Of a stretch of DNA of 64,000 nt, positions 1 through 60,867 are shown piece by piece. A model generated the notes under the pieces. It ran no database searches. It was not told the DNA's origin and saw only the letters and a list, made by a program, of their open reading frames with translations. Made by a program: the position numbers and the translations under genes. Location: the IMG/VR virus record IMGVR_UViG_3300025154_000076, positions 1-64,000 of that record, one strand, 5' to 3'. The stretch's first letter is position 1; every line of letters starts with the position of its first letter. This DNA comes from a virus.

Positions 1-105
1 TGGTACGCAGATGCTTGGAGACTTCCAAAAGAGGAAAGAGCAAAATTAAGGTCAAAAACATTTGAGGGGATTGCGAAGGCTATGGCGATGCAGTGGGCTT
101 CCTAG
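1..105 (+). CDS. C-terminal fragment of a phage C5 DNA methyltransferase-like protein (5' truncated by window edge)
   Basis: Frame +1 reads WYADAWRLPKEERAKLRSKTFEGIAKAMAMQWAS*. RSKTFxGIAxAMAxQW is a C-terminal motif typical of small phage cytosine-MTase-like proteins. Confidence 0.6.
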   Translation, partial: WYADAWRLPKEERAKLRSKTFEGIAKAMAMQWAS

Positions 106-111
106 TATTGT

Positions 112-201
112 GCCTAACGGTGGGCATAAGAAACGTGGCCTTGTAACCACTTTCGAAATGCGTACCAGCTCATCGGCCATGTTTTTTATGCCGTGTTATA
201 T
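112..201. mobile_element. attC-like cassette recombination site 1
   Basis: GCCTAAC ... GTTATAT ends enclosing the inverted arms ggcataagaaacgtggcc / ggccatgttttttatgcc. Confidence 0.65.
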
Positions 202-267
202 ACTGGCGGATTTATTAAGGCAAGCATTTGATTAATAGTACTGAACAAATTTTTAATATTTTTTAGC

Positions 268-1326
268 GTGGGCATTTTTTTTAAACATATTGGGCTTTTT
301 GAAGGGATTGGCGGTTTTAGTTTAGCCGCTGAATTAATGAATTGGGAAACTACTGCCTGGTGTGAAATAAATCCATTTTGCCAACGAATTTTAAAATATC
401 ATTTTCCTAAATCGATACCTCATGAAGATATTAGAAAAACAGACTTCACTATTTACAGAGGAGCAATTGACATCATTACAGGTGGATTCCCCTGCCAACC
501 ATTTAGCCAGTCCGGAGCGCAAAAAGGAGAAGACGATGAACGATATTTATTTCCAGAAATGTTTAGAGCAATTCGAGAGATTAAAGCCCCGTGGATTGTG
601 GCAGAAAATGTTTATGGAATTACTACACGTAAATTTAGAGAAGTGTTCGAGACTATTTGTTCATCGCTGGAAGCTGAAGGGTACGAAGTTCAACCGGTTA
701 TTATTCCAGCTTCAGCGGTCGGAGCTCCGCACGAACGAGACCGGGTTTGGTTTATTGCCTACAATTCAAACGCAGGGTTTGAAAATATGCGACAAAAATG
801 GGAAAACTCAGTTCATAGATTTGAACCTATTGCCAACTCCAACGGCTCACCAACAGAAAACGAAATACAAGCAAGGTGGAACGAGTTTAACGGCAAAACT
901 ATTACCAACTCCGACAAACTCAATGGTGACTTATCAGGACTTTATTCAAGCGGGATTTCACAGTTCGAAAAGGCCGGAATATTCGAAAATAATATTACCA
1001 ACACCAATGAGTTCAGATTGGAAGGGTTCAAAGCAAAAAAGGAAAGAAAACTCACAATTAACGGAAACTGTTGGAGCGAGTTCCCAACTCAATCCCCTAT
1101 TTGTAGCAGAAATGATGGGATTTCCTTTGGATTGGATGATATTACCTTTTCAAAATGGAGAAATGAAAGCATTAAAGGACTTGGAAACGCAATAGTTCCA
1201 CAAGTGGCAGTGCAGATATTTAAGGCAATTCAAACGGCTGCCTTAGCAGACGAAGCGCGCTGGCAAAAAATATTAAAACTTTGCCCACAAACTTCAATTA
1301 ATGGCACTGAAACCGCTTGTATATAA
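268..1326 (+). CDS. C5 cytosine DNA methyltransferase, alpha-type subunit
   Basis: Motif I LFEGIGGF, IV GGFPCQPFS, VI ENV, VIII HERDRVWF and X GLGNAIVPQ. Motif IX is not apparent in this frame. Confidence 0.9.
   Translation: MGIFFKHIGLFEGIGGFSLAAELMNWETTAWCEINPFCQRILKYHFPKSIPHEDIRKTDFTIYRGAIDIITGGFPCQPFSQSGAQKGEDDERYLFPEMFRAIREIKAPWIVAENVYGITTRKFREVFETICSSLEAEGYEVQPVIIPASAVGAPHERDRVWFIAYNSNAGFENMRQKWENSVHRFEPIANSNGSPTENEIQARWNEFNGKTITNSDKLNGDLSGLYSSGISQFEKAGIFENNITNTNEFRLEGFKAKKERKLTINGNCWSEFPTQSPICSRNDGISFGLDDITFSKWRNESIKGLGNAIVPQVAVQIFKAIQTAALADEARWQKILKLCPQTSINGTETACI
422..1195 (+). CDS. Nested alternative-frame MTase beta-type subunit (M.EcoHK31I-beta-like)
   Basis: 257-aa ORF lying entirely inside the MTase gene. 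It ends in a motif-IX-like LNPLFVAEMMGFPLDW and has four LLPT(P) repeats. Confidence 0.7.
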   Translation: MKILEKQTSLFTEEQLTSLQVDSPANHLASPERKKEKTMNDIYFQKCLEQFERLKPRGLWQKMFMELLHVNLEKCSRLFVHRWKLKGTKFNRLLFQLQRSELRTNETGFGLLPTIQTQGLKICDKNGKTQFIDLNLLPTPTAHQQKTKYKQGGTSLTAKLLPTPTNSMVTYQDFIQAGFHSSKRPEYSKIILPTPMSSDWKGSKQKRKENSQLTETVGASSQLNPLFVAEMMGFPLDWMILPFQNGEMKALKDLETQ

Positions 1327-1416
1327 CGTTTTGCGTATAAGAGATGTGGCACTTATACGAATGTTTAAATCAAGGCACAAAGCCCAATGTGCCATATCTT
1401 TTATACGCTGTTATGT
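1321..1416. mobile_element. attC-like site 2
   Basis: ATATAAC ... GTTATGT with arms gcgtataagagatgtggcac / gtgccatatcttttatacgc. The MTase stop codon lies in TAAC. Confidence 0.65.
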
Positions 1417-1457
1417 GCTGGGCGGTTTATCAGCACTAAATTTAATTTAAAAACAAA

Positions 1458-1673
1458 ATGATTATTACAGTAAAAATGAAAGACGGTGAAAGACAAAAGC
1501 CGATTGTAACTATTGACACAGAAACTTGCTTATATCCATACGCAATTATAGAAGCATTGGAATTAGCTTTAAGACTTGATGGCTATGATGAAAGTACAAT
1601 TAAGCAAGTTTTTAATCGCCAAAACGATGCAAAGTGTGAACCTGAACCGTCTGCTGATTTAGCACGGTCGTAG
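1458..1673 (+). CDS. Hypothetical protein (cassette ORF)
   Basis: 71-aa ORF between attC-like sites 2 and 3. Confidence 0.6.
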   Translation: MIITVKMKDGERQKPIVTIDTETCLYPYAIIEALELALRLDGYDESTIKQVFNRQNDAKCEPEPSADLARS

Positions 1674-1679
1674 CCTTGC

Positions 1680-1810
1680 ACATAACGACTACGTGTATGT
1701 TGTCGTTGCGTGATTGAAACAAAAATGTTAAATATAAAAATACAGTAAAATGAAAAAACAAAACTTGGATAACCCACAGGAGCAGCAATGCAATATACAC
1801 GATGTTAGGC
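1680..1810. mobile_element. attC-like site 3
   Basis: ACATAAC ... GTTAGGC with arms cgtgtatgttgtcgttgc / gcaatgcaatatacacg. Confidence 0.6.
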
Positions 1811-1974
1811 TTTCGTTGCCTGACATTAGGAACAAACTGTCTCCAATAAAAAACTTGATAGCAATGCTTGAAAATGGACTAATGAAAGGTACAATAGAAG
1901 TACACCCTTATATACAAAAGGAAATTGAGCAATGTAAAAAAAGCATTGCGTATTTGTCGGGCAATGAAGCCTAA
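1750..1974 (+). CDS. Hypothetical protein (cassette ORF starting inside attC-like site 3)
   Basis: 74-aa ORF whose stop TAA is part of GCCTAAC. Confidence 0.55.
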   Translation: MKKQNLDNPQEQQCNIHDVRLSLPDIRNKLSPIKNLIAMLENGLMKGTIEVHPYIQKEIEQCKKSIAYLSGNEA

Positions 1975-2008
1975 CTCGTTTATAATGTCAATTCAAAAAA
2001 TTGAACCA
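1972..2008 (-). mobile_element. Putative attI-like array-terminal site (copy 1)
   Basis: 31/37 identical to 55053-55089. The bottom strand ends in the GTTAGGC core. Confidence 0.5.
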
Positions 2009-2243
2009 TATGCAACTAACTAAAAGAGAACAAGATATACTCAACAGAATAGAACAATTAATATTTAAAGGTGAGTTAACTAATGCCTTTTTAGTTCAAA
2101 ATATTGAACTAAGCGGAAGATATTTAAACCTTAAAACAAGATCAGATTATGCCAATGAAAATAACAAAAGCTACAATGGTGTAAAAAATTGTCGTAAAAA
2201 TATACGCTTGTTCAATGTAAATTTTATAATAGATAACGAATAA
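2001..2243 (+). CDS. Hypothetical protein
   Basis: ORF track; the likely ATG start is at 2010. Confidence 0.55.
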   Translation: MNHMQLTKREQDILNRIEQLIFKGELTNAFLVQNIELSGRYLNLKTRSDYANENNKSYNGVKNCRKNIRLFNVNFIIDNE

Positions 2244-2253
2244 CCTAAAAATC

Positions 2254-2433
2254 ATGAAAGAATCACTCCAAAGAAGGGTTGCACAAAAGCAACAACAAAT
2301 AGCCATTGACATGAAAAAAGCAACTAAACATGCTGTACAAAACAATGTAGAAGGATTTATTAAATTTGCTCTACAAGTGAATGACTTAAACTATGAAAAA
2401 AAAGTATTGGAAGAAATTATTATTAATCTTTAA
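2254..2433 (+). CDS. Small hypothetical protein (59 aa, MKESLQRRVAQK...)
   Basis: Translated by hand; it fills the gap in a co-directional operon. Confidence 0.5.
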   Translation: MKESLQRRVAQKQQQIAIDMKKATKHAVQNNVEGFIKFALQVNDLNYEKKVLEEIIINL

Positions 2434-2443
2434 ATTTAAAATT

Positions 2444-2728
2444 ATGAATGAATATGTAGTATTGGACAATATCGCTGTTAGGGTGATAAAAAAAGAAGAA
2501 AAGAAAACACCAGGGGGAATTATCATCCCTGAAACAGTGAATGACAAAGACCCCATACGTGGGGAGGTGGTAATGGTAGGAAAAGGAAGGATGGGTGAAA
2601 AAATGCAGGTTAATGTAGGGGATATAATCCTTTTTAACAGGCATATTGGTACAAAAATTAAAACTGATGCAGGTGAAGAACTTATTATCATGCGACAATC
2701 AGAAATCACTTTTGGAATGAAAAAATAA
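2444..2728 (+). CDS. groES: Co-chaperonin GroES
   Basis: Motifs EEKKTPGGIIIPET, GEVVMVGKG, VNVGDIILF and ELIIMRQSEI; ATG at 2444. Confidence 0.88.
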   Translation: MNEYVVLDNIAVRVIKKEEKKTPGGIIIPETVNDKDPIRGEVVMVGKGRMGEKMQVNVGDIILFNRHIGTKIKTDAGEELIIMRQSEITFGMKK

Positions 2729-2742
2729 AAAATAATATTAAC

Positions 2743-2949
2743 ATGGACACAAGAGAACTATATCAGCTACTATCAAACAAAACTCTTATCGCTATTGAAA
2801 GAGATTTGGAAATAATTGAAATCTTTGCTGTGAATAAAGGGTCAAAAAAAGAGGTGAAAAAACAACTCAACTATTTGCGATCCGAAATAATTCGAGGTAC
2901 AAAAAAGGTATCTCTTATAGAAGAAACACTTCAAAAAATGGCACAATGA
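2743..2949 (+). CDS. Hypothetical protein
   Basis: ORF track, operon context. Confidence 0.55.
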   Translation: MDTRELYQLLSNKTLIAIERDLEIIEIFAVNKGSKKEVKKQLNYLRSEIIRGTKKVSLIEETLQKMAQ

Positions 2950-3182
2950 GTTATTTTTTTACTGAAAAATCAATTATGGAGGAAGGTACAACCATCCTTT
3001 ATGATAACACCACCTACAAAGAGATAGGAAGGATTAACCCATTATTGCATGATAATTTCACTGCAATAATTACTACAGGAAGAAAAAAGGGAAAACAATT
3101 TCATTCCCGGTTTAAATCCATTTGTGAAGGATGGATAGCATCTCATTTTTACCATAAAAAAAAGAAATCATATGCTTACTAA
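2946..3182 (+). CDS. Hypothetical protein
   Basis: ORF track, ATGA overlap with the upstream gene. Confidence 0.55.
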   Translation: MSYFFTEKSIMEEGTTILYDNTTYKEIGRINPLLHDNFTAIITTGRKKGKQFHSRFKSICEGWIASHFYHKKKKSYAY

Positions 3183-3956: not shown

Positions 3957-5309
3957 TTAATATTCTTTTGGCAATTGCTCAATAATTTTCTTAATAAGAT
4001 CTTCATTAGGCTGAAAATCTTTCTTAATACTTACATTAGCTGCCCTGGTTTTAGATGTAGAACGAGGAAATTTATAGGTTACCTTTCCCATGTTATCTGG
4101 TAGTTCAAGTTCATCCCATCTGCCATCAGATGCTTTTTTTATGAACAGATTTAATATCTCTGTTCTTTTTTCATCCAACACCTTGATATAGTTTCTGAAT
4201 ATTTCATCTTGTTTGGCCAATACCAATTCATCAGGGGTTGCCAATATCTTATTTTCAGGAGTTTCTTTCTCCATGAATTTTTCAGATACATAAGCAGGAT
4301 AATTCACCTCTTTGTTTCCCAAAGGTTCACATTCATTTATCACCTGTTGCGCTCTTTCGGCTGTTTCGAAATCCATTATCTTTTCTGCTTCGTTTCTCAC
4401 CGCAATAGCTTGTCTTGCCCATCTCACTTTTTCCATGAACCCATTACCTTGCTTTAACATAAACTGGATAAAGGGTTCATTACGTTCAAATTTATTCACC
4501 TGGAAGATATTGGATCCTATTTTTACAGGTATTTCTGCATAGTCTGATTCTGATACAAGCATTTGAAGTTGGACTTGTGCTTGGTAACTTTTTGGTAAGA
4601 TAAAATTTCCTGAATTGTAGGATTTAAAAAATATATCACAAATAGTATAATCAGCTCCATAGTCTGTTCCATTATTTCTTGCTACATCGGTGGACATTGT
4701 TTTAGCCTCTACAGGGAACCCATTACTTTGTTCTCCTGTTATCAAATTAACACTTCCTTTTCTTGCCCAAAAATCCAATGAAACAAAGAAATTACGATAA
4801 TCCGGATTAACTAAATATCCTTTTACTTCATCTGCCCTTCTGAAAAGAATATCATTCTTTTGTTTTTCCCTATATGATTTGACCCATATCTCATAATCTT
4901 TAATATTAAATTGATCCACTATTTTTGAATATTCCAATACCGGATCATTTCTTAATGCAAGATCAAGTTTTTTTGATATTTCAATATATCCTTCAGGTGT
5001 ATTATCCCAACATTCCCAAAGTTCTTTTACATCATTCTCACCCCTTCTTCCAAAAAACATAGCTGCATTGTCATAACTCTTGTCAATTGCTTTTTCACCT
5101 ATCTTTTGGTCAAATTTCTGTAAGCAAACATCATATTTCCATGTAAGGTAAAGTATTGTGCCTATCTCTGATGCCCCTATACCTCCATCATAGGCTTTTT
5201 GTCCATAAGGAGCTGCCTGATCATCTGTTAGTCCTAAGGTTCTAAATAAGAACCAATCATCACTGTGTGTGGGGATGTTGTAGTTTAAAAGTTTTTTAAA
5301 TATGTCCAT
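3957..5309 (-). CDS. YqaJ/lambda-exonuclease family recombination nuclease
   Basis: Motifs GIGASEI, SLD, EAKT and YQAQVQLQMLVS. Confidence 0.8.
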   Translation of the reverse strand: MDIFKKLLNYNIPTHSDDWFLFRTLGLTDDQAAPYGQKAYDGGIGASEIGTILYLTWKYDVCLQKFDQKIGEKAIDKSYDNAAMFFGRRGENDVKELWECWDNTPEGYIEISKKLDLALRNDPVLEYSKIVDQFNIKDYEIWVKSYREKQKNDILFRRADEVKGYLVNPDYRNFFVSLDFWARKGSVNLITGEQSNGFPVEAKTMSTDVARNNGTDYGADYTICDIFFKSYNSGNFILPKSYQAQVQLQMLVSESDYAEIPVKIGSNIFQVNKFERNEPFIQFMLKQGNGFMEKVRWARQAIAVRNEAEKIMDFETAERAQQVINECEPLGNKEVNYPAYVSEKFMEKETPENKILATPDELVLAKQDEIFRNYIKVLDEKRTEILNLFIKKASDGRWDELELPDNMGKVTYKFPRSTSKTRAANVSIKKDFQPNEDLIKKIIEQLPKEY

Positions 5310-42157: not shown

Positions 42158-44560
42158 TTAATTTACATTAGATGTTTCTCTTTGCAGCCTCGATTCAAGG
42201 GCAATCCTTTCTCCTTGTTCTGCACGTAATAACAATGATTCTACCGTTGCTATCCTTTTTTCAAATTCACTCTCGGCTGGCATAGTAATAGTGGCTTCAA
42301 ACATTTTTTCTGCTCTTATTTCCTGAATCTTATTCTTAGATTTATTATTATCTATCTCAATAGCCAACATTGCTTCATTTTGCTTTATCTGTTTAGATAT
42401 TTCAAATGCTTGTATATCACTCTTTCTTTTTTCTTCTCCCTGTGCTTGAACCCTTTCTATTTCCATTTGGTGATTCAATTGCCTTTCCTTGTTTTCAAGG
42501 AATGAAATCATAACCCTTACACTCTTTAAAGGAACATTACTTGCTGTCATTTCTTTAAGTAACAAGCCATGTGATGCCCGAATAAGGGGTACACCATTCT
42601 TTCCTGACTGCATGGCAACAGTAATATAGTTATCTAACTCTGCCTTTTGTTTTTCTGTAGGAGCAGCCTCTACCTTAATTGCATAATTAGTCCTTACAAT
42701 CTTTTCACTTATCTGTAATGTTTTTAAGGTATGTTTACCCAATACAGGATAATATGCTTCATAAGCTTCCGGAAAATTCTTTAATAGTATTTGAGAACGA
42801 ATACATCCACTTAATGCTATTAACTCTTTTAAATTCATATATGCCTTATATAAAGGTCTTATTGCATTATTAGTGGCATGTAAGGCTAATTCTGAACCCC
42901 TTACGGAGGCATTAGGATCTGGGGTGCTTGCATCTGCAACCTGATTTATTCCTGTTATATCACGAAGCATTTCTATTCTAAACTTAATATCATTAAGTAG
43001 TTCAACCCCTAATTCTCCCAAACCACCTCTTAATTCTTCCATTGGCTTACCTAAGTTATTTCCAAAACCGGATAATCCCATAGGTGTTACCTTAAATAAT
43101 AAATCTCCTTTAGTCCTTCGTATTTCTAAAATTGTCATAGGACTTAATTTATTACCCCCTATTTTCAGGTTTGAAATAGAATCAATATTTATAGCAAGAC
43201 CCGGAGGTGCTGCATTGGCTTTAGCATTCTGTAATTTCAACATATCAAGCTGTATCTCATTCAATATTGGGATACAACTTTGAACCATTGATTGACCCGG
43301 CATTTTAACCATCTTTAATGACAATCGAACTTCACCATTTTCTCTTGGTTGCCCGGATTTAATACCATACTCAAAACAATGTTCTGTACCTATAATCAAA
43401 TGGCCATAATAAACATTATTTATTTGTGTTTTTCTTGTTTTTCTTTTTTCTGAATCCTTTTCTTTACCCCATTCTTTACCTTTTTGGGCATAAACCCTTT
43501 CTTGCCCATAACTACTTTTTACCAATGTATCATAGAATGTATCTGTGGATATGGTTTCAAAAACAAGAACTTTAATTTTGTGATTATCATAAGGTGTTGG
43601 GTTATCCGAAGATAGTCTATTTACTGATGTAGTATAGTTTTTTGACCCTGTATATCCGTTTTCTGTTGCCATTGCATACAAATCATCTTCCTCAAATCCT
43701 TTCTGTCTTAATTCAGCAATTGAATAATTCTCAATGTATCCCCAAAATTCTGCGTTTTTATATAATGGACTACTATCTCTTTGTATAATTACACTTGCAG
43801 GGTCAACATATTTTATTCTTGTTTTGTTTATTTGGGTATCTAATTCATCCCTTACAGCAGCATAATTTATTTTAATTAAATCACCATATATTAAATCCTT
43901 TATTTCCTTATCCCAATCCGATATATCAAAATTATGCTGAATCATAAATTCCATTGCTAATTCCTGATTGAGTTTAAAACCTCCCATGCTTTCAAATAAA
44001 TTCAATTCCTGCGTATCTTCTGGAACATAGGATTGTTTATCGTATGCCATGCCCCTTCTCTCATATGCTCTTTGCTTAAATGCCTGGGTATAATTCTCTT
44101 TGTATAATTCCCATTTTGCATCTTCCTTTTCCATAGAACTTATCTTATCTAAAGCTGTTGCTCCAATAACGTGTTCCATAGTGCTAAAAACACCCAATAA
44201 TATTCTTACATATTTAGGCATAATAGGTACAATAGACCAGTCAATATTCATTAACCCCTGACGCTTCTCTTCTTTTGTAAACCCTGAATCATATTGTGTG
44301 GATTGAGTAGTGGTTTCATTATTGATATTTACATCAAAATGAGGTTTATATTGATCGGAATCTTGCATACCATCGCCATAAGCCCTTTGAATAGCAAATA
44401 TATCTCGCATAGCATAAGGAGTATCTGCATTTTTCTCTCCATAGTCCATAATATATTTACCATAGCTGACAAACCAATCCTTATCATTCCTTTTTACATC
44501 AGGATTTATGTCATCAGAAGGTCTTTCTATATCTTTAAAATCTGTATTTTTTAGTTCCAT
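42158..44560 (-). CDS. Portal protein
   Basis: 800 aa; NIDWSIVPIMPKYV, RIKYVDPA and LRDITGIN..D.STP motifs; follows TerL. Confidence 0.85.
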   Translation of the reverse strand: MELKNTDFKDIERPSDDINPDVKRNDKDWFVSYGKYIMDYGEKNADTPYAMRDIFAIQRAYGDGMQDSDQYKPHFDVNINNETTTQSTQYDSGFTKEEKRQGLMNIDWSIVPIMPKYVRILLGVFSTMEHVIGATALDKISSMEKEDAKWELYKENYTQAFKQRAYERRGMAYDKQSYVPEDTQELNLFESMGGFKLNQELAMEFMIQHNFDISDWDKEIKDLIYGDLIKINYAAVRDELDTQINKTRIKYVDPASVIIQRDSSPLYKNAEFWGYIENYSIAELRQKGFEEDDLYAMATENGYTGSKNYTTSVNRLSSDNPTPYDNHKIKVLVFETISTDTFYDTLVKSSYGQERVYAQKGKEWGKEKDSEKRKTRKTQINNVYYGHLIIGTEHCFEYGIKSGQPRENGEVRLSLKMVKMPGQSMVQSCIPILNEIQLDMLKLQNAKANAAPPGLAINIDSISNLKIGGNKLSPMTILEIRRTKGDLLFKVTPMGLSGFGNNLGKPMEELRGGLGELGVELLNDIKFRIEMLRDITGINQVADASTPDPNASVRGSELALHATNNAIRPLYKAYMNLKELIALSGCIRSQILLKNFPEAYEAYYPVLGKHTLKTLQISEKIVRTNYAIKVEAAPTEKQKAELDNYITVAMQSGKNGVPLIRASHGLLLKEMTASNVPLKSVRVMISFLENKERQLNHQMEIERVQAQGEEKRKSDIQAFEISKQIKQNEAMLAIEIDNNKSKNKIQEIRAEKMFEATITMPAESEFEKRIATVESLLLRAEQGERIALESRLQRETSNVN

Positions 44561-44588: not shown

Positions 44589-46856
44589 TTAATATTTATA
44601 CACCTTCACGAATTCACTTAAATCCACCTCGTCATTATTGGCATGTTGGAGTATTTCCTTATACTTTGATTTAGAACCTTCTAATGCTAATGCTACTGCT
44701 GTAAAACGGTCATAATGGGTTAAGTCAAATAAACCCCTTATCTGCAAGCAATCATCAATAAATTCAATATGATTTAATGTTGTTCCCCTTTGCTGAATGT
44801 AATCTCTCACATTCCTAAACAACTTTTGTTTTGATTCATCTGATTTTGTATCATAGCCATAAAAAGGTGTCAACTCCTCAAACCCTGATTTATTTATCTT
44901 TATCTGCCTCATTAGATAACCATGATAATTCCATTGTCGGAACCATTCCTCTATTACCGGAACGTTTCTTTCAGGATTCATTATGCCTCCCCAATAGATA
45001 GATGCTTTAAGAGCTTCCTCTGCAAAATCTTTTGTTTCAGGTGGTCTTTTTTGATAGGTGGCAACAAGTTTAAATGTATCCCATTCTTTTATGTCTTTCT
45101 TATCATCAAGAGAAGGGTCATAATCCCTTACTACAGACAATCCTCCATCAGAACCTTTTTTATTTGATTTAGTCCGACTAAAAGTAAAAGCATCACCACC
45201 TAATGTATATTGCGGATCAGCAGGATAATAAACCCCTTCATTTCTGTATCTCTTATTACGAACCCTTTCTAATGGTTTTTCTGATATTATCCAATCAGCA
45301 TCACTTCTTTCAGCACAAGAAACAAAAACTACATCATTTCCGAAAATCCCATTCTGCCATTCTAAAAAACCAAAAATACAAGGGTCATAATCAAATTCAA
45401 GTTCACCCCTTCTAACTTCAAGTATCTCTCGATTGAAATTTATTTCATCAGCGGAAGGGGTAAAACATTCCCTATATGTTAATGGTAATTTCCTTACATA
45501 TCCTGCAAGTCCATCAAAATCTTTAGCCTTTCTGTATTTTGCCCTGTTAGCCATTATGTCATCCAGTGAACCCTCTGTTATCATTTTCCCATCTACTCCC
45601 TTTATAGGTTTTTCTGGTGTATGCATTACAGATGCTCCATATTCATCAATAAAACCACCCCTTCCATCAGCAGCACTCATAAACACATTAACTAAACCCG
45701 ATAAGGTTGACCCATTCTTTCGATCTCCCCAATGTGATTGTTCACATAGTTTAGTATATTGTTTCATTGCTTCAGCAGTAGTTTCTTCAACTGTTGTAGT
45801 GTAAATCATCCATCCATTAATATTACCTCCATCATTTAAACATTCCTTCAATGTCTGATGCCTGGCATGAACATCTTCTAATTTTGTTTTACCCGATTCA
45901 TCCACATTCAATATGTTTATCCTTCTCTTATCATAGTAACTCTTTCCGGCAGTAGTGGCAAAATCTGATACTGAATTAAGTCCTAACCTATCATCCATAA
46001 ATGTTCCCTTTCCTCCGATATGTATTGCACCAGGCTTTAATGTTAGCCTTGTTTTTACATCAGTGGATCCTTCATGCATGGGTTTAAAAAAAAATGGTAG
46101 ATTATTAAACGGATATACAAGGTGTTTAGTAAACATTTCTTCTCCGTTATTTGAATCCATTCCTTGTATTCCACCTTCCCAATTCATGTGAGAAGTAATT
46201 AGGTTACAATGTATAGATAATGCCCTTGATGACTTACCTGCTCTACGAGCATCCATATTATTAGTACCATGTAGAACCCTTTTACCCCGATCAATCCCTA
46301 ATTCATCTTCAGTAAGGTTAAATAGATATTCCTGAACAACAAACCACCTTCTATCTCTATCCCTATAATCAGGTAGTTTACCTGTAAGCAATAAATAATA
46401 ATTCAGGTAATACCAATGCCACCCACAAATAAATGTAGGCTTGCCTTTTATAAAAAACCATTTACCATTAAACCTATGATACCATTGTGTTTTTATCCAA
46501 TTAATTTCATCCTTAAATTCTGCTTTGTTTGCTTCAAGATATGCCCATATTTCCTCCACAGTCATAAATACCTCCATCGGTTTTGTTGTCTTTCTTCGCT
46601 TTTCACGAAGTAACATATCCGGGAGTTTTTTTAGCTTATCAGGTATTTGTTCGTATTGGAATTTCTGATCTTTAGGTTTTTGGTTAAACCCTTCTATCAG
46701 GTGTATATCTGGGCAAGAAGGAAGTTTAACCCTTATCTCTTGTAAATCCCTGTCATTACTATTTACAACAACCCATGTATCTTCCGGTTCATAGCTTTTA
46801 AGAATATTAACATGAACTGTGGGATATTTCTTTTTTAGTTGTTGTAGATTCAGCAT
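44589..46856 (-). CDS. terL: Terminase large subunit
   Basis: Walker A RRAGKS, Walker B ILNVDESGK, nuclease motifs LGGD.F, ERN and D. Confidence 0.9.
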   Translation of the reverse strand: MLNLQQLKKKYPTVHVNILKSYEPEDTWVVVNSNDRDLQEIRVKLPSCPDIHLIEGFNQKPKDQKFQYEQIPDKLKKLPDMLLREKRRKTTKPMEVFMTVEEIWAYLEANKAEFKDEINWIKTQWYHRFNGKWFFIKGKPTFICGWHWYYLNYYLLLTGKLPDYRDRDRRWFVVQEYLFNLTEDELGIDRGKRVLHGTNNMDARRAGKSSRALSIHCNLITSHMNWEGGIQGMDSNNGEEMFTKHLVYPFNNLPFFFKPMHEGSTDVKTRLTLKPGAIHIGGKGTFMDDRLGLNSVSDFATTAGKSYYDKRRINILNVDESGKTKLEDVHARHQTLKECLNDGGNINGWMIYTTTVEETTAEAMKQYTKLCEQSHWGDRKNGSTLSGLVNVFMSAADGRGGFIDEYGASVMHTPEKPIKGVDGKMITEGSLDDIMANRAKYRKAKDFDGLAGYVRKLPLTYRECFTPSADEINFNREILEVRRGELEFDYDPCIFGFLEWQNGIFGNDVVFVSCAERSDADWIISEKPLERVRNKRYRNEGVYYPADPQYTLGGDAFTFSRTKSNKKGSDGGLSVVRDYDPSLDDKKDIKEWDTFKLVATYQKRPPETKDFAEEALKASIYWGGIMNPERNVPVIEEWFRQWNYHGYLMRQIKINKSGFEELTPFYGYDTKSDESKQKLFRNVRDYIQQRGTTLNHIEFIDDCLQIRGLFDLTHYDRFTAVALALEGSKSKYKEILQHANNDEVDLSEFVKVYKY

Positions 46857-56174: not shown

Positions 56175-56504
56175 ATGGTACAAACCCCTTATAAATGGAA
56201 TAAATACATAGCCAATAAGGGCAAATGTGATTTCTGTGGGGTAAAGAGGGATTATTATAACTGCCGGATAACAACAGATGGGTTTCTTGCTTGTCGCACC
56301 TGTTATAATAATAAAGGGTCAAAAACAGTGGAGGAGTTCAGGGAATATATAAGGGGTTGCATCCGCAAACTTAAAAACAGGAGGATGCCACCGGAATACA
56401 GGATAGCCTCACGCTATGGAGCTGCAACACATAACCATTATTTTCTATTCTCTTTTGAAAGAAAACTAAAAAAAGCAAAAGAAAAACTCAGGAACAAAAA
56501 ATGA
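56175..56504 (+). CDS. HNH-like Zn-finger protein
   Basis: CDFCG ... LACRTC.N.KG.KTVEEFR pattern. Confidence 0.55.
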   Translation: MVQTPYKWNKYIANKGKCDFCGVKRDYYNCRITTDGFLACRTCYNNKGSKTVEEFREYIRGCIRKLKNRRMPPEYRIASRYGAATHNHYFLFSFERKLKKAKEKLRNKK

Positions 56505-57967
56505 AACAGGATTTACTCTCTATATTGGATTATGACAAGATACCTCCACAGGATATTGCAATGGAAGAAGCAGTGATTGGTGGGATATTAATAGAATCAT
56601 TAGCATTTGATTTAGTGGTAGATATTTTAACCCCTGATTCATTTTATAAAGAAACCCATAAATTCATATATCAGACTATATTCAACCTCAACAAAAAAAA
56701 CAAAGAGATTGATATTCTAACGGTAAAAGATGAACTTCAAAATAATGGGTTATTAGAAAAGATTGGTGGGGCATACTACCTAACTACCTTAACACAAAGA
56801 ACATCATCTATTGCCTCCATACAGGAATGGGCATTAAGGATAAAAGAAAAATACATACGAAGATTATTAATACAAAAATCAACAGAAACAAGAGATTCAG
56901 CCTATGACGAAAGCAAGGACTTAGAACACACACTTGACATGCTTAATATTACGATTGATACTGTTAATAAAGAAACAACAATCGGAACAGGATTAACCCA
57001 TATATCCAGCATAGCTGTTAAAGCAAGCGAAGATTTAAACCATAAGATTGAAAAAGCCAATAGAGGAGAGGTTCTTGGTGTACCTACCGGACTTACAAAG
57101 CTTGATAGTATGACATTAGGGTGGTTGCCAGGGCTTCTTATTATCATTGCAGCCAGGCCTTCATTGGGTAAAACAGCCTTTATGATTAAATTCGCTAAGA
57201 TAGCAGCTAAAAATGGGTATAAAGTGTTAATCTTCTCTATTGAGATGAATGAAATAAGTTTGGTTCATAGGCTGATTCTTTCTGAAACCACTGTTGACCA
57301 TGAAAAATACAGATCAGGAAAAGGCATAACTGAAGATGAAATGATGCAAATAAAGGGTTCATCAAAAATCATTGCGGATCTGCCTATTTACATTGATGAT
57401 AATCCCTATGCCACAGTATCATATATGCGAAGCCATGCAAGAATAAGAAAGAAAGCAGGGGAATGTGATATGATCATGGTTGACTATTTACAAATTGTAA
57501 CCCCACAAAAAGAAAAAGGCAGATCAAGGGATGAAGAAGTGGGAACCATTACCTCAGGGTTAAAAGCCATTGCCAAAGAACTTAAAGTTCCGGTTATTGC
57601 CCTTGCTCAATTAGGAAGAAAAGTGGAGGACATGAAAGACAATAGACCCAAGCTTTCCACATTAAGAGAATCAGGAAACATAGAGGCTGATGCTGATATG
57701 GTATTGGGAATACACCGACCAAATTATTATGGTGATTTATTTATTGATGAATATGTAGGAGGTAGATCAATAAGTGTATCTGCAATAAATAGGGGACATC
57801 TTATTGTACTTAAACATAGGGATGGGCCTGTGGGATATATCCCATTTTATTATTCCGATAATTTAGCAGTGATAGAAGATGCGGATTATAAAGAAAGGGT
57901 TGCAGTAGATTATGACCCTGATACATATATTAAACCAGTGGGAGATGATGAAGATCTTCCTTTTTAA
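56501..57967 (+). CDS. dnaB: Replicative DNA helicase
   Basis: PPQ...E.AV.G, AARPSLGKT, VDYLQ, LAQL.R and LRESG.IE.DAD motifs. Confidence 0.95.
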   Translation: MKQDLLSILDYDKIPPQDIAMEEAVIGGILIESLAFDLVVDILTPDSFYKETHKFIYQTIFNLNKKNKEIDILTVKDELQNNGLLEKIGGAYYLTTLTQRTSSIASIQEWALRIKEKYIRRLLIQKSTETRDSAYDESKDLEHTLDMLNITIDTVNKETTIGTGLTHISSIAVKASEDLNHKIEKANRGEVLGVPTGLTKLDSMTLGWLPGLLIIIAARPSLGKTAFMIKFAKIAAKNGYKVLIFSIEMNEISLVHRLILSETTVDHEKYRSGKGITEDEMMQIKGSSKIIADLPIYIDDNPYATVSYMRSHARIRKKAGECDMIMVDYLQIVTPQKEKGRSRDEEVGTITSGLKAIAKELKVPVIALAQLGRKVEDMKDNRPKLSTLRESGNIEADADMVLGIHRPNYYGDLFIDEYVGGRSISVSAINRGHLIVLKHRDGPVGYIPFYYSDNLAVIEDADYKERVAVDYDPDTYIKPVGDDEDLPF

Positions 57968-59131: not shown

Positions 59132-60250
59132 CTAATGGCTTACGTTAGCGTACAAAGGGTTGTCCCTAACCCCAAAATTCTTTATATTATATGCAGCATT
59201 CAAATCCCTATCTATTGAATTATTACACTTATCACAATTGTAAGTTCTATCTGAAAGTTTTAAATCTTTCTTGTGATTTCCACAATTAGAACATACTTTA
59301 CTGCTTGGTTCAAATCTGCCAATTACAACAAGATTTTTACCTTGCCATTCAGTTTTATATTCAAGCATTGTTCTTAATTGTCGCCAACCCATTTCAGATA
59401 TGGCTTTAGCTAAATTATGGTTCTTAACCATATTACTAACTGCTAAATCTTCTAATACAATTGTGTTATACGTGTTTACTAATTCAGTAGATATTTTATG
59501 CAAGTAATCAGTCCTTTGGTTACGGATTTTTTCTTGCAATAATGCTACTTTTAATTTTTGTTTTTCTCTATTTATTGAACCTTTCTGTTTTCTTGCAAAG
59601 CTTCTCTGTTCAACTCTTAATCTTCTTTGTTGCGATTTGAAAAAGTTTTTATTTTCATACACCACACCATCAGAAGTAATTGCTAAATCTTTAATCCCAA
59701 AATCAATACCAACAGATGTTTCGGATTTAATTGGTTTTTGCTTTGGTTTTTCTATTTGTGTATCAACCAATATTGATACAAAGTATTTACCAGTAACAGT
59801 TTTGCTTAATGTAACTCTTTTTGGTAATCCTTTGAACAATCTATGATAATCAATAGCAACCTCTTTTAATTTAGGTAATTTTAAAATGTTGTTATCAAAA
59901 TCAACCTCAAAACCTTGTGGAAATGTAACTGACTGCTTAGAGTATCTATTCTTGTATTTAGGAAACTGACCTTTGCCTTTAAAAAAGTTTTGATATGCTG
60001 TATCTAAATTGATAATACTATGTTGTAGTATTTGACTTGGACATTCTTTAATGTAATCAAATTCCTTTCTTAATTCTGGAAGTTGTTTAATTAAATCATA
60101 TTTAGATATTGATGTTTTATTTGAAGCATACGCAACAGTCTTGGTCTCTAAACCAAGATTATATACCAATCTATTTACACCAAAATACCTTTGTAATTGG
60201 TTTTTTTGGTCATCCGTTGGGAATATTCTGTATTTGTATCCTTTAAGCAT
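59132..60250 (-). CDS. tnpB: TnpB RNA-guided endonuclease
   Basis: N-terminal YKYRIFPT; RuvC motifs GIDFG, LEDL and DRD.NAA; Zn finger CSNC...CDKC. Confidence 0.95.
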   Translation of the reverse strand: MLKGYKYRIFPTDDQKNQLQRYFGVNRLVYNLGLETKTVAYASNKTSISKYDLIKQLPELRKEFDYIKECPSQILQHSIINLDTAYQNFFKGKGQFPKYKNRYSKQSVTFPQGFEVDFDNNILKLPKLKEVAIDYHRLFKGLPKRVTLSKTVTGKYFVSILVDTQIEKPKQKPIKSETSVGIDFGIKDLAITSDGVVYENKNFFKSQQRRLRVEQRSFARKQKGSINREKQKLKVALLQEKIRNQRTDYLHKISTELVNTYNTIVLEDLAVSNMVKNHNLAKAISEMGWRQLRTMLEYKTEWQGKNLVVIGRFEPSSKVCSNCGNHKKDLKLSDRTYNCDKCNNSIDRDLNAAYNIKNFGVRDNPLYANVSH

Positions 60251-60396
60251 ATATTATTAAATAGTCTAAACTTTTGTAAAAGTACAACATTTTTATCTAA
60301 ATTACAAGTTTTGGTTAAATTTATTTTATTTGATACCGTATTTTGTTTAAATCATTCCGTCTTTGGTTGTAAATAATTTAAACAAAATACTACATT

Positions 60397-60801
60397 ATGC
60401 AATCAAATTACATTTCTACAAATCATTCAAAACACTATTTAAAATGTCATCTAATTCTCGTTACTAAGTATCGTAAAAATATGTTAGTTGGTCAATTAAA
60501 TGATGATTTAAAAGATATATTCAGTTCCATAGCAGATAACTCAGATTTTGAAATAGAAGTTATGGAGTCTGATGTAAACCATATTCATTTCTTAATTAGG
60601 TACATACCTCGCCTATCTATATCCCAAATGGTTCGTAGGCTTAAACAAGAATCTACTCGTCAGTTATGGTTATTGCATCATACTACTTTACGTCAGTATT
60701 ATTGGTATCGTAAAATACTTTGGAGTGATGGGTTCTTCGTTTGTTCAATAGGTGAAGCAAGTCCAGATACTATCCGTCAATATATTTTAAGCCAAGGTTA
60801 A
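60397..60801 (+). CDS. tnpA: IS200-family HUH (Y1) transposase TnpA
   Basis: H.ILVTKYR, HIH (HUH), LWSDGFF and IRQYI motifs. Confidence 0.95.
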   Translation: MQSNYISTNHSKHYLKCHLILVTKYRKNMLVGQLNDDLKDIFSSIADNSDFEIEVMESDVNHIHFLIRYIPRLSISQMVRRLKQESTRQLWLLHHTTLRQYYWYRKILWSDGFFVCSIGEASPDTIRQYILSQG

Positions 60802-60867
60802 TCATACCTTTGTCGCTTACATCCCATCCACGCTAAAAAGCGATGAATGGGTTTTACGCTCCTTTTT

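Follow-up and report, generated by a model that had tools for sequence, protein, structure and literature searches.

The window analysed here is the whole 64,000-nucleotide (nt) stretch formed by positions 1 to 64,000 of the 72,079-bp virus record IMGVR_UViG_3300025154_000076, which is rated 100% complete and represents a tailed phage of 71.8 kb (70.6 kb without a polymorphic unit described below). Window positions 1-1975 are the right-hand part of an array of gene cassettes separated by hairpin sites. The original prediction had placed an integron-like cassette array at 112-1975; the feature is present there but is larger, comprising nine units bounded by ten TAAC junctions over about 5.8 kb, beginning at genome position 67994, passing over the contig ends and stopping at window position 1975. 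The final 241 bases of the record (genome 71839-72079) consist of window 1-118 followed by window 1322-1450, with window 1-118 duplicated at genome 71839-71956. Since the end of the record repeats the start of the window, the contig is a circle read slightly more than once. The open reading frames (ORFs; lengths in amino acids, aa), sites and junctions of the array are as follows, with positions of the full record marked as genome positions.

Genome 67994, 68397, 68795, 69922, 70660 and 71219: TAAC junctions upstream of the window
Genome 69193-69924: D12 N6-adenine methyltransferase
Genome 70012-70662: phrog_757 methyltransferase
Genome 70826-71209: YopX protein
Genome 71323-71943: phrog_757 DNA methyltransferase, 206 aa (4.6e-66)
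Window 115, 1324, 1683 and 1972: TAAC junctions in the window
1-118, plus strand: 3' end of the preceding cassette, with the end of the 206-aa methyltransferase ORF (stop codon 103-105) and the tail ..TGTGCCTAAC (109-118)
115-198, plus strand: site 1, with TAAC at 115-118, a 4-nt spacer, an 18-bp stem, a 34-nt loop, a 2-nt spacer and GTTA at 195-198
119-1327, plus strand: polymorphic cassette of 1,209 nt, with site 1, leader, C5 methyltransferase and tail ..GTATATAAC; register ambiguous by 5 nt (TAACG)
195-212, plus strand: 5' arm of the terminal inverted repeat, GTTATATAC..., which pairs with 1310-1327
268-1326, plus strand: C-5 cytosine DNA methyltransferase, 352 aa (PF00145, 6.3e-48; phrog_363, 7.3e-64), with its stop codon inside TAAC
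1322-1461, plus strand: conserved module of about 140 nt, site 2 and leader up to the ATG, 93-98% identity
1324-1413, plus strand: site 2, with TAAC at 1324-1327, a 5-nt spacer, a 20-bp stem, a 36-nt loop, a 1-nt spacer and GTTA at 1410-1413
1458-1673, plus strand: 71-aa ORF without a family match
1671-1686, plus strand: conserved cassette tail TAGCCTTGCACATAAC, complementary to GTTATGTGC at 1410
1683-1807, plus strand: site 3, with TAAC at 1683-1686, a 5-nt spacer, a 12-bp stem, an 86-nt loop, a 2-nt spacer and GTTA at 1804-1807
1750-1974, plus strand: 74-aa ORF, starting inside the site 3 loop and stopping inside the terminal TAAC
1955-1975, plus strand: tail of the last unit, which pairs with 1804-1825; the last TAAC (1972-1975) is the array end

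In total, the cargo comprises four DNA methyltransferases, one YopX protein and five small ORFs without a family. The folding strand, which in an integron would be called the bottom strand, carries all cargo ORFs, each behind a conserved leader of 45-70 nt, and the two stop codons expected inside a TAAC were found there (ORFs 268-1326 and 1750-1974). Protection of the phage against host restriction is the most likely role of the four methyltransferases. Each unit brings its own leader, probably with a promoter in it; a sigma-70 promoter scan of positions 1-2600, which does not cover Bacteroidota promoters, found 9 promoters versus 9.1 expected. At genome 68795-69167 (L005 4795-5167), a whole 73-aa ORF (68874-69095) lies inside the 328-nt loop of a site. 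The stem of this site is 15 bp long (68806-68820 paired with 69149-69163), and the D12 methylase of this unit comes next, where cargo is normally located.

The original prediction described three long hairpins in the window. Sites 1 and 2 are strong, with stems of 18 and 20 bp, whereas site 3 has a stem of only 12 bp. Positions 123-140 pair with 175-192 in site 1, and 1333-1352 pair with 1389-1408 in site 2, while the outer stem of site 3 is formed by 1692-1703 and 1790-1801; each of these stems includes two G:T pairs. Folding of site 2 as DNA gave -25.9 kcal/mol (z -5.7), and none of 200 shuffles was equally good. A reading of site 3 as a single long hairpin was ruled out in the array context by the minimum-energy fold. 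Site 3 is a genuine junction despite its weak 12-bp stem. Stems in the array are continuous over 12-20 bp, with no bulge, and spacers measure 4-5 nt on the 5' side versus 1-2 nt on the 3' side. The extrahelical bases that had been expected in the folded sites were not present in those of the array, nor was a roughly symmetric, attC-style unpaired central spacer. A scanner built to find AAC and GTT enclosing an uninterrupted stem with a score of 9 or more, with 3-6 nt between AAC and the stem and 0-3 nt between the stem and GTT, returned 13 matches on the plus strand of the genome, about half of them inside the array, with an average of 2.7 in 30 shuffles. The 5' part of site 1 (GGTGGGCATAAG, 123-134) and the ..TATAAG.. 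motif of many stems may resemble the arm of a Xer/dif site.

The type of site 3 with an ATG in its loop (window 1750-1810) recurs in another phage (L054, 5240-5330). The N-terminal segment MKK..QQCNIHDV of the 74-aa ORF is shared with a different ORF in that locus. Since the site 3 loop contains the start codon, this segment is encoded by the site itself and is fused to different C-terminal parts in the two phages.

On the coding strand, a unit is laid out as a G and a 3- to 4-nt spacer, an imperfect, G:T-rich hairpin of 12-20 bp, a 1- to 2-nt spacer, GTTA followed by a stretch X, an AT-rich leader, the ORF, and finally X' followed by TAAC, where X' is the complement of the unit's own X. Because the start and the end of a unit are complementary, the complete site is contiguous only when the unit is circular, and it then consists of a 9- to 16-bp R stem, an asymmetric internal loop, an L stem and a loop. 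The claim that each unit begins with a complement of its own end was borne out for all units of the window. Thus GTTATATAC (195-203) pairs exactly with GTATATAAC (1319-1327) over 9 nt, extending to 18 nt at 83% complementarity; GTTATGTGC (1410-1418) pairs exactly with GCACATAAC (1678-1686) over 9 nt; and 1804-1825 pairs with 1955-1975 over 22 nt with two G:T pairs and one bulge. Upstream, the tail TGTGCCTAAC is the 10-nt exact complement of GTTAGGCACA, which is located after the site at genome 71219-71283. A recognizable 3' arm follows the site in eight of the nine units; seven of these eight show a 9- to 10-nt exact complement between start and end, and the remaining one has a single mismatch (GTCAGCAAC versus GTTGCTAAC). 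The units therefore carry both an AAC...GTT core and an inverse core complementary to the start of the same cassette, as cassettes with attC sites do.

Folding of the circle-junction version of the sites was more favorable than folding of the array version in all six of the phage's own sites compared, by 4.1-11.1 kcal/mol. The difference was 9.3 kcal/mol for the unit of site 1 and 9.4 kcal/mol for site 3, whose circle-junction fold shows the long base-of-site pairing that is missing from the array fold. Complementarity was then compared across 44 related phage loci, which were collected by an IMG/VR search with the 265-aa-type recombinase protein described below. At least eight contiguous complementary bases were found in 88 of 153 adjacent site pairs, versus 3.7% when the same ends were paired at random. 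The array pattern is far beyond chance.

Presence and absence of one unit were observed in independent assembled contigs of two public runs (X1 and X2), perhaps from the source samples. Behind the 206-aa methylase, the junction exists as two alleles. Site 2 immediately follows ..TGTGCCTAAC in one of them, as at the contig end; in the other, site 1, the C5 methylase and ..GTATATAAC stand between ..TGTGCCTAAC and site 2. The branch carrying the unit was a 1,264-nt contig with a depth of 25.3 in X1 and 23.6 in X2, and the branch without it was a 55-nt contig omitting 1,209 nt with a depth of 27 and 17.2, respectively. The flanks of this bubble had a depth of 45-51, and five bases (TAACG) are common at the joint. 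Comparison of branch with flank depths indicates that about half of the population is without the unit. The 1,209-nt unit thus shows the precise, unit-wise excision or insertion at the core that characterizes CALINs (clusters of attC sites without an integron integrase).

Since site 1, the gene and the tail are lost together and site 2 is retained, the crossover on the coding strand is located 5' of the hairpin, which assigns each hairpin to the gene downstream of it. The crossover reads TAAC|G on the coding strand and C-G-T-T-A on the complementary strand, which is compatible with the classical G|TT. The G/TT junction of the original prediction is accordingly correct for the complementary strand, whereas on the strand as read the junction is TAAC|G and lies 5' of the hairpin. 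Two further runs from other studies (X5 and X7) covered only about 1881-3000 plus short modules, at low depth. A 41-nt stretch after the last TAAC (1971-2011), spanning the ATG at 2009, recurs with two mismatches in other contexts in contigs of runs X1 and X7, and it may be a hairpin-less leader module.

An enzyme-free origin of this indel was considered, in which copy-choice during replication slips between the short direct repeats TAACG with the aid of secondary structure. A direct repeat of 5 nt does border the deletion, and the ends of the unit are inverted over 18 nt. However, an X/X' stem would favor loss of the GTTA..TAAC segment rather than the hairpin and unit that were observed to be lost, and slippage explains neither the insertion of unrelated cassettes at the same border nor the recombinase association described below. 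We consider slippage very improbable.

The module formed by site 2 and its leader is found in other phages. Its exact 20-mer is present in 10 IMG/VR contigs and in LR745206.1, a 634-kb uncultured phage. In 12 of 12 contexts, module homology starts at TAAC|G with unrelated DNA upstream and extends as far as the start codon of the following ORF, with at least eight different ORFs of 59-88 aa downstream. The tail TAGCCTTGCACATAAC is identical in the window and in L006, L007 (= L013), L012 and L014, that is, behind five distinct ORFs in six loci; it has one mismatch in L001, is degenerate in L008 and is absent from L011 and L015. Since the tail returns behind different ORFs, the conserved element is contiguous only as a circular permutation consisting of tail, TAAC|G, hairpin, GTTA-X and leader. 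As a whole, the site, leader and tail form a backbone (1322-1686; L001, L006-L015) that encloses at least eight unrelated small ORFs and breaks at the ATG and at the stop codon. A break of the same kind separates two of the related loci, L019 and L020, which share 1,229 nt at 100% identity starting from TAAC and have unrelated sequence ahead of it. The original prediction had staked itself on unit-wise variation at the junctions, and such variation was found in the 1,209-nt allele pair, in the break between L019 and L020 and in the 12 contexts of site 2.

Portability of this kind recalls the PeSLs of T4-like phages, composite promoter/stem-loop motifs that mediate indels (PMC4122927, PMC2839356). 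Under a reading modeled on them, the hairpin and leader would be terminator/promoter modules exchanged by homologous recombination with the phage's own genes, with no site-specific enzyme. Such an origin would suit the 93-98% identity of the site 2 module up to the ATG over 12 phage contexts, and the phage has a RecE-like exonuclease (3957-5309). In both systems, as far as the available text of those papers goes, composite modules of hairpin and leader flank variable accessory genes in plastic genome regions, but PeSL exchange is homologous recombination between similar copies (PMC2839356, PMC4122927). Here, near-identical copies were not found: the sites are dissimilar (a blastn comparison of the array with 60 loci showed no homology between sites 1 and 2), the ends are complements specific to each unit, and the joint of the observed indel has only five common bases. 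Homology also breaks at a fixed border, AAC|G within TAAC|G, rather than at varied points. Exchange between similar copies further leaves the X/X' complementarity, the strand bias of the G:T pairs and the link to a tyrosine recombinase unexplained, and we regard it as unlikely.

Two large phage contigs among five other array-bearing records encode a tyrosine recombinase of 265-266 aa, and its ORF begins about 55 nt past the terminal ..TAAC|T of a co-oriented array. In two contigs, the array beside the recombinase includes the site 2 type, located 4.8 kb upstream of the enzyme gene in one and 3.7 kb in the other. Across the 44 loci, 203 sites were found on the recombinase strand, 190 of them upstream and 13 downstream of the recombinase start; the opposite strand had 25 sites, and one shuffle of each locus gave 19. 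An array, defined as at least two sites within 3 kb, was present in 27 of the 29 loci having at least 2 kb of upstream sequence (exceptions, L055 and L062). In these relatives, a conserved junction, TAAC|TATTATATATAC, closes the arrays 50-60 nt ahead of the ATG of the recombinase.

The recombinase of the relatives is Xer-like. Its closest solved relative is the archaeal XerA 4a8e (1.9e-34), and 20 recombinase sequences all retain the catalytic R, H-x-x-R, H and Y. It aligns to VchIntIA only at residues 10-177 and 260-313, leaving about 48 IntI residues unmatched; this partial alignment indicates that the IntI-specific insertion is missing. Scores against TIGR02249 were 159-170 bits, under the cut-off of 265. 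Bacterial relatives with 39-63% identity were found in 246 stretches, and the best 80 of these were nearly all from Bacteroidota, with a few from Spirochaetota. In three Flavobacterium and Tenacibaculum genomes (L118, L130 and L139), 3-6 scanner matches lie on the opposite strand, downstream of the recombinase relative, unlike the phage layout.

The genome also carries an enzyme that could be considered as the catalyst, a Y1 TnpA of the IS200/IS605 family (60397-60801; PF01797, 2.9e-33), together with a divergent TnpB. Members of this family act on single-stranded hairpins and cleave 3' of a tetranucleotide, and their ends are sequence-specific. The resident transposase would then move the units as single-stranded "peel and paste" elements inserting 3' of TAAC. 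However, PF01797 is absent from all five other array-bearing records, the end hairpin of the insertion sequence is unlike the cassette sites, and the cassette hairpins are diverse in sequence. Unlike IS200/IS605 elements, the cassette units carry no right-end hairpin and thus no paired left and right subterminal hairpins of one sequence type. Mobilization by TnpA is therefore extremely improbable.

To compare strands, a strand-neutral criterion was applied in which five Watson-Crick pairs are followed by eleven positions scored for G:T-type or A:C-type pairs. Among 109 distinct sites, there were 175 G:T-type versus 8 A:C-type pairs on the recombinase-sense, coding strand, and the phage's own array had 11 versus 0. 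Only the coding strand folds well. Such a bias would be in keeping with recombination of a single-stranded substrate, the G:T pairs determining which strand is used. A rival explanation confines the hairpins to RNA: they would be signals for mRNA processing, stability or termination between early genes, X/X' would close the mRNA ends, and the indel would be an unrelated deletion. The same 175 versus 8 pairs lie on the transcribed strand, the sites are located in 5' leaders, and small terminator-like stems occur in their loops (7 found versus 1.8 expected). A function in RNA alone would leave unexplained that DNA is gained and lost exactly at the site border, both in the population and between phages, that only a circular permutation of the DNA makes the conserved site contiguous, and that the arrays end at a conserved junction adjoining a recombinase gene. 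In addition, according to the available text of Qi et al. 2023 (PMC9892861), one of two tested sites of Polaribacter phage P12002L was recombined as DNA by IntI1, on the bottom strand only. An RNA-only role is thus decidedly unlikely.

Collectively, these data point to a site-specific, recombinase-less, integron-like cassette array of a Bacteroidota-type phage whose mechanism we infer, a reading to which we assign a probability of roughly 0.75. The plus strand would fold as single-stranded DNA into an R stem (X'TAAC paired with GTTAX), a spacer and an L stem. Cleavage by a Xer-like recombinase would occur where the R stem meets the spacer, at AA|C or C|G. Units would leave as circles and enter another site or a TAAC|TATTATATATAC junction, as the integron does on its bottom strand, with resolution by replication, as proposed for integrons. 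The enzyme would be supplied by a co-infecting phage or a Bacteroidota host. Because related contigs encode the recombinase at the end of arrays of the same site type, supply in trans is plausible; since this phage has neither the enzyme nor the TAAC|TATTATATATAC junction, it would depend on a co-infecting phage or a host relative of the enzyme.

Several observations weigh against this cassette reading. The window has no integrase, as had been noted, and the whole 72,079-bp genome gave no match to PF00589 (tyrosine recombinase) at an E value of 10 or less, with 14 of 14 controls positive; PF00239 (serine recombinase) likewise gave no match in the genome at that threshold. The suggestion that an integrase might be encoded upstream in the same genome therefore failed. 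The attI-like junction TAAC|TATTATATATAC was not found in the genome at up to three mismatches, besides chance AT-rich matches. The phage has no synteny to the recombinase contigs, only 1 of 16 array-flank proteins being matched (in L041), and consequently there is no evidence for deletion of a recombinase here. An array of the same geometry lies upstream of a recombinase relative in only 3 of 71 eligible bacterial loci, and the proposed link to a Xer-like enzyme rests on co-location in other contigs, not on experiment. Within the array, site 3 is weak, its stem being missing from the minimum-energy fold in the array context (z -0.17), and the unit at 68401-68798 has neither a hairpin nor a matching 5' arm. 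The G:T bias on the transcribed strand fits RNA structure equally well. A circular junction was sought in assembled contigs, not reads, and none was seen, which says nothing either way.

Compared with integrons, the array shows both shared and divergent properties. attC sites are organized as R''/L''/L'/R', with the crossover at G|TT and a recombinogenic bottom strand. As in integrons and CALINs, single-gene units are arrayed between imperfect hairpin sites with an AAC...GTT core, the start of each unit is complementary to its own end, units are gained and lost at the core, and one strand is favored for folding. The arrays of relatives, as in integrons, adjoin a simple site by the 5' end of a tyrosine recombinase gene, and read on the complementary strand their geometry is classical. 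Unlike a complete integron, this genome is without an integrase and an attI-type site, and the recombinase of the relatives is without the IntI-specific insertion. The cargo also differs, since it lies on the folding strand behind its own leader, whereas integron cassettes carry promoterless top-strand ORFs. In contrast to attC, the central spacer is asymmetric (4-5 versus 1-2 nt), the stems are long and unbroken and contain G:T pairs in place of extrahelical bases, and the R stem is at least 9-10 bp rather than 7. The claim of an integron-like cassette system shuffling accessory genes is thus supported by unit turnover, while we infer excision circles and their chemistry, and the enzyme of the relatives is Xer-like, not an integron integrase.

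Xer-dependent elements offer a second comparison. CTX-type phages use XerCD to integrate in the form of folded single strands, and pdif modules are Xer-dependent. The arrays resemble these elements in having a candidate catalyst of the Xer family, a folded strand that would mimic a two-arm site, and gene modules bounded by inverted sites. However, those elements rely on the host's XerC/D and on dif-like sites of 28 bp, and they are not known to build multi-cassette arrays that have an attI-like end.

A CALIN has been defined as a cluster of two or more attC sites without an integron integrase (Cury et al. 2016, PMC4889954). Qi et al. 2023 (PMC9892861) report 17 CALINs in phages, with five methyltransferase cassettes; in the available text, these include a recombinase-less CALIN with two methyltransferases in P12002L. 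That CALIN and the present array have in common a Bacteroidota-type phage, the lack of an integrase and methyltransferase cargo, and virulence is stated only for P12002L (PMC9892861). Scanning of the P12002L genome (NC_028924, L016) revealed TAAC-spacer-stem-GTTA sites with X/X' complementarity near gp54, gp53, gp38, gp36 and gp35. These form two arrays on the early-gene strand, and their fourth base covaries, GTTG occurring with CAAC. The tail TGTGCCTAAC, the arm GTTAGGCAC and the tail GTGCCTAAC of P12002L are those of the methylase cassette of the phage studied here. Both P12002L arrays (L016 37185-37260 and 29151-29250, minus strand) end in the same approximately 70 nt after TAAC (AACGGATAAAAC...), and this common end may be a shared array terminus.

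In the available text of the P12002L paper (PMC9892861), two attC sites are called, and there is no description of the unit design, crossover side, leader, population polymorphism or a linked recombinase. A literature search found no paper on hairpin cassette arrays linked to a Xer-like recombinase in phages, with Qi et al. 2023 being the nearest. The search likewise gave no other paper describing the unit design, the crossover side, the leaders, the population polymorphism or the Xer-like recombinase.

If the cassette reading is correct, phage accessory genes, here mostly anti-restriction methylases, would be exchanged as discrete cassettes in a site-specific manner, beyond illegitimate and homologous recombination. 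Such exchange would account for plastic early-gene regions in many Bacteroidota phages and would mean that folded single-strand sites can be recognized without the IntI-specific domain. Conserved backbones with unrelated ORFs would provide a natural case for the origin of cassettes, an open question for integrons, and the roughly 50:50 allele mix in one sample offers a concrete experimental substrate. On a broader proposal we place even odds: Bacteroidota phages may run their own integron-like gene capture, with a short Xer-like recombinase without the IntI insertion, a strand choice set by G:T pairs and cargo on the recombinogenic strand behind portable promoters. Large phages would encode the enzyme, the recombinase-less arrays of small ones, the present phage among them, would be serviced in trans through co-infection or host relatives of the enzyme, and the backbone with at least eight ORFs would point to active cassette-making.

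The remainder of the genome was also surveyed. A gathering-threshold Rfam scan of the whole window gave no matches, the attC model being absent from Rfam, and when relatives of the phage were sought in IMG/VR through its 450-aa RecE-like protein, no pattern match was found. An IS605-type insertion sequence lies inside the phage at window 59132-60860. Other features of the window are as follows.

3957-5309: RecE-like exonuclease
42158-44560: portal
44589-46856: large terminase
56501-57967: DnaB-like helicase
59132-60250, minus strand: TnpB, 372 aa, divergent, with OrfB_IS605, Cas12f1-like TNB and HTH domains
60397-60801: Y1 transposase TnpA, 134 aa, divergent
About 60820-60850: end hairpin of the IS605-type insertion sequence, 3' of TnpA

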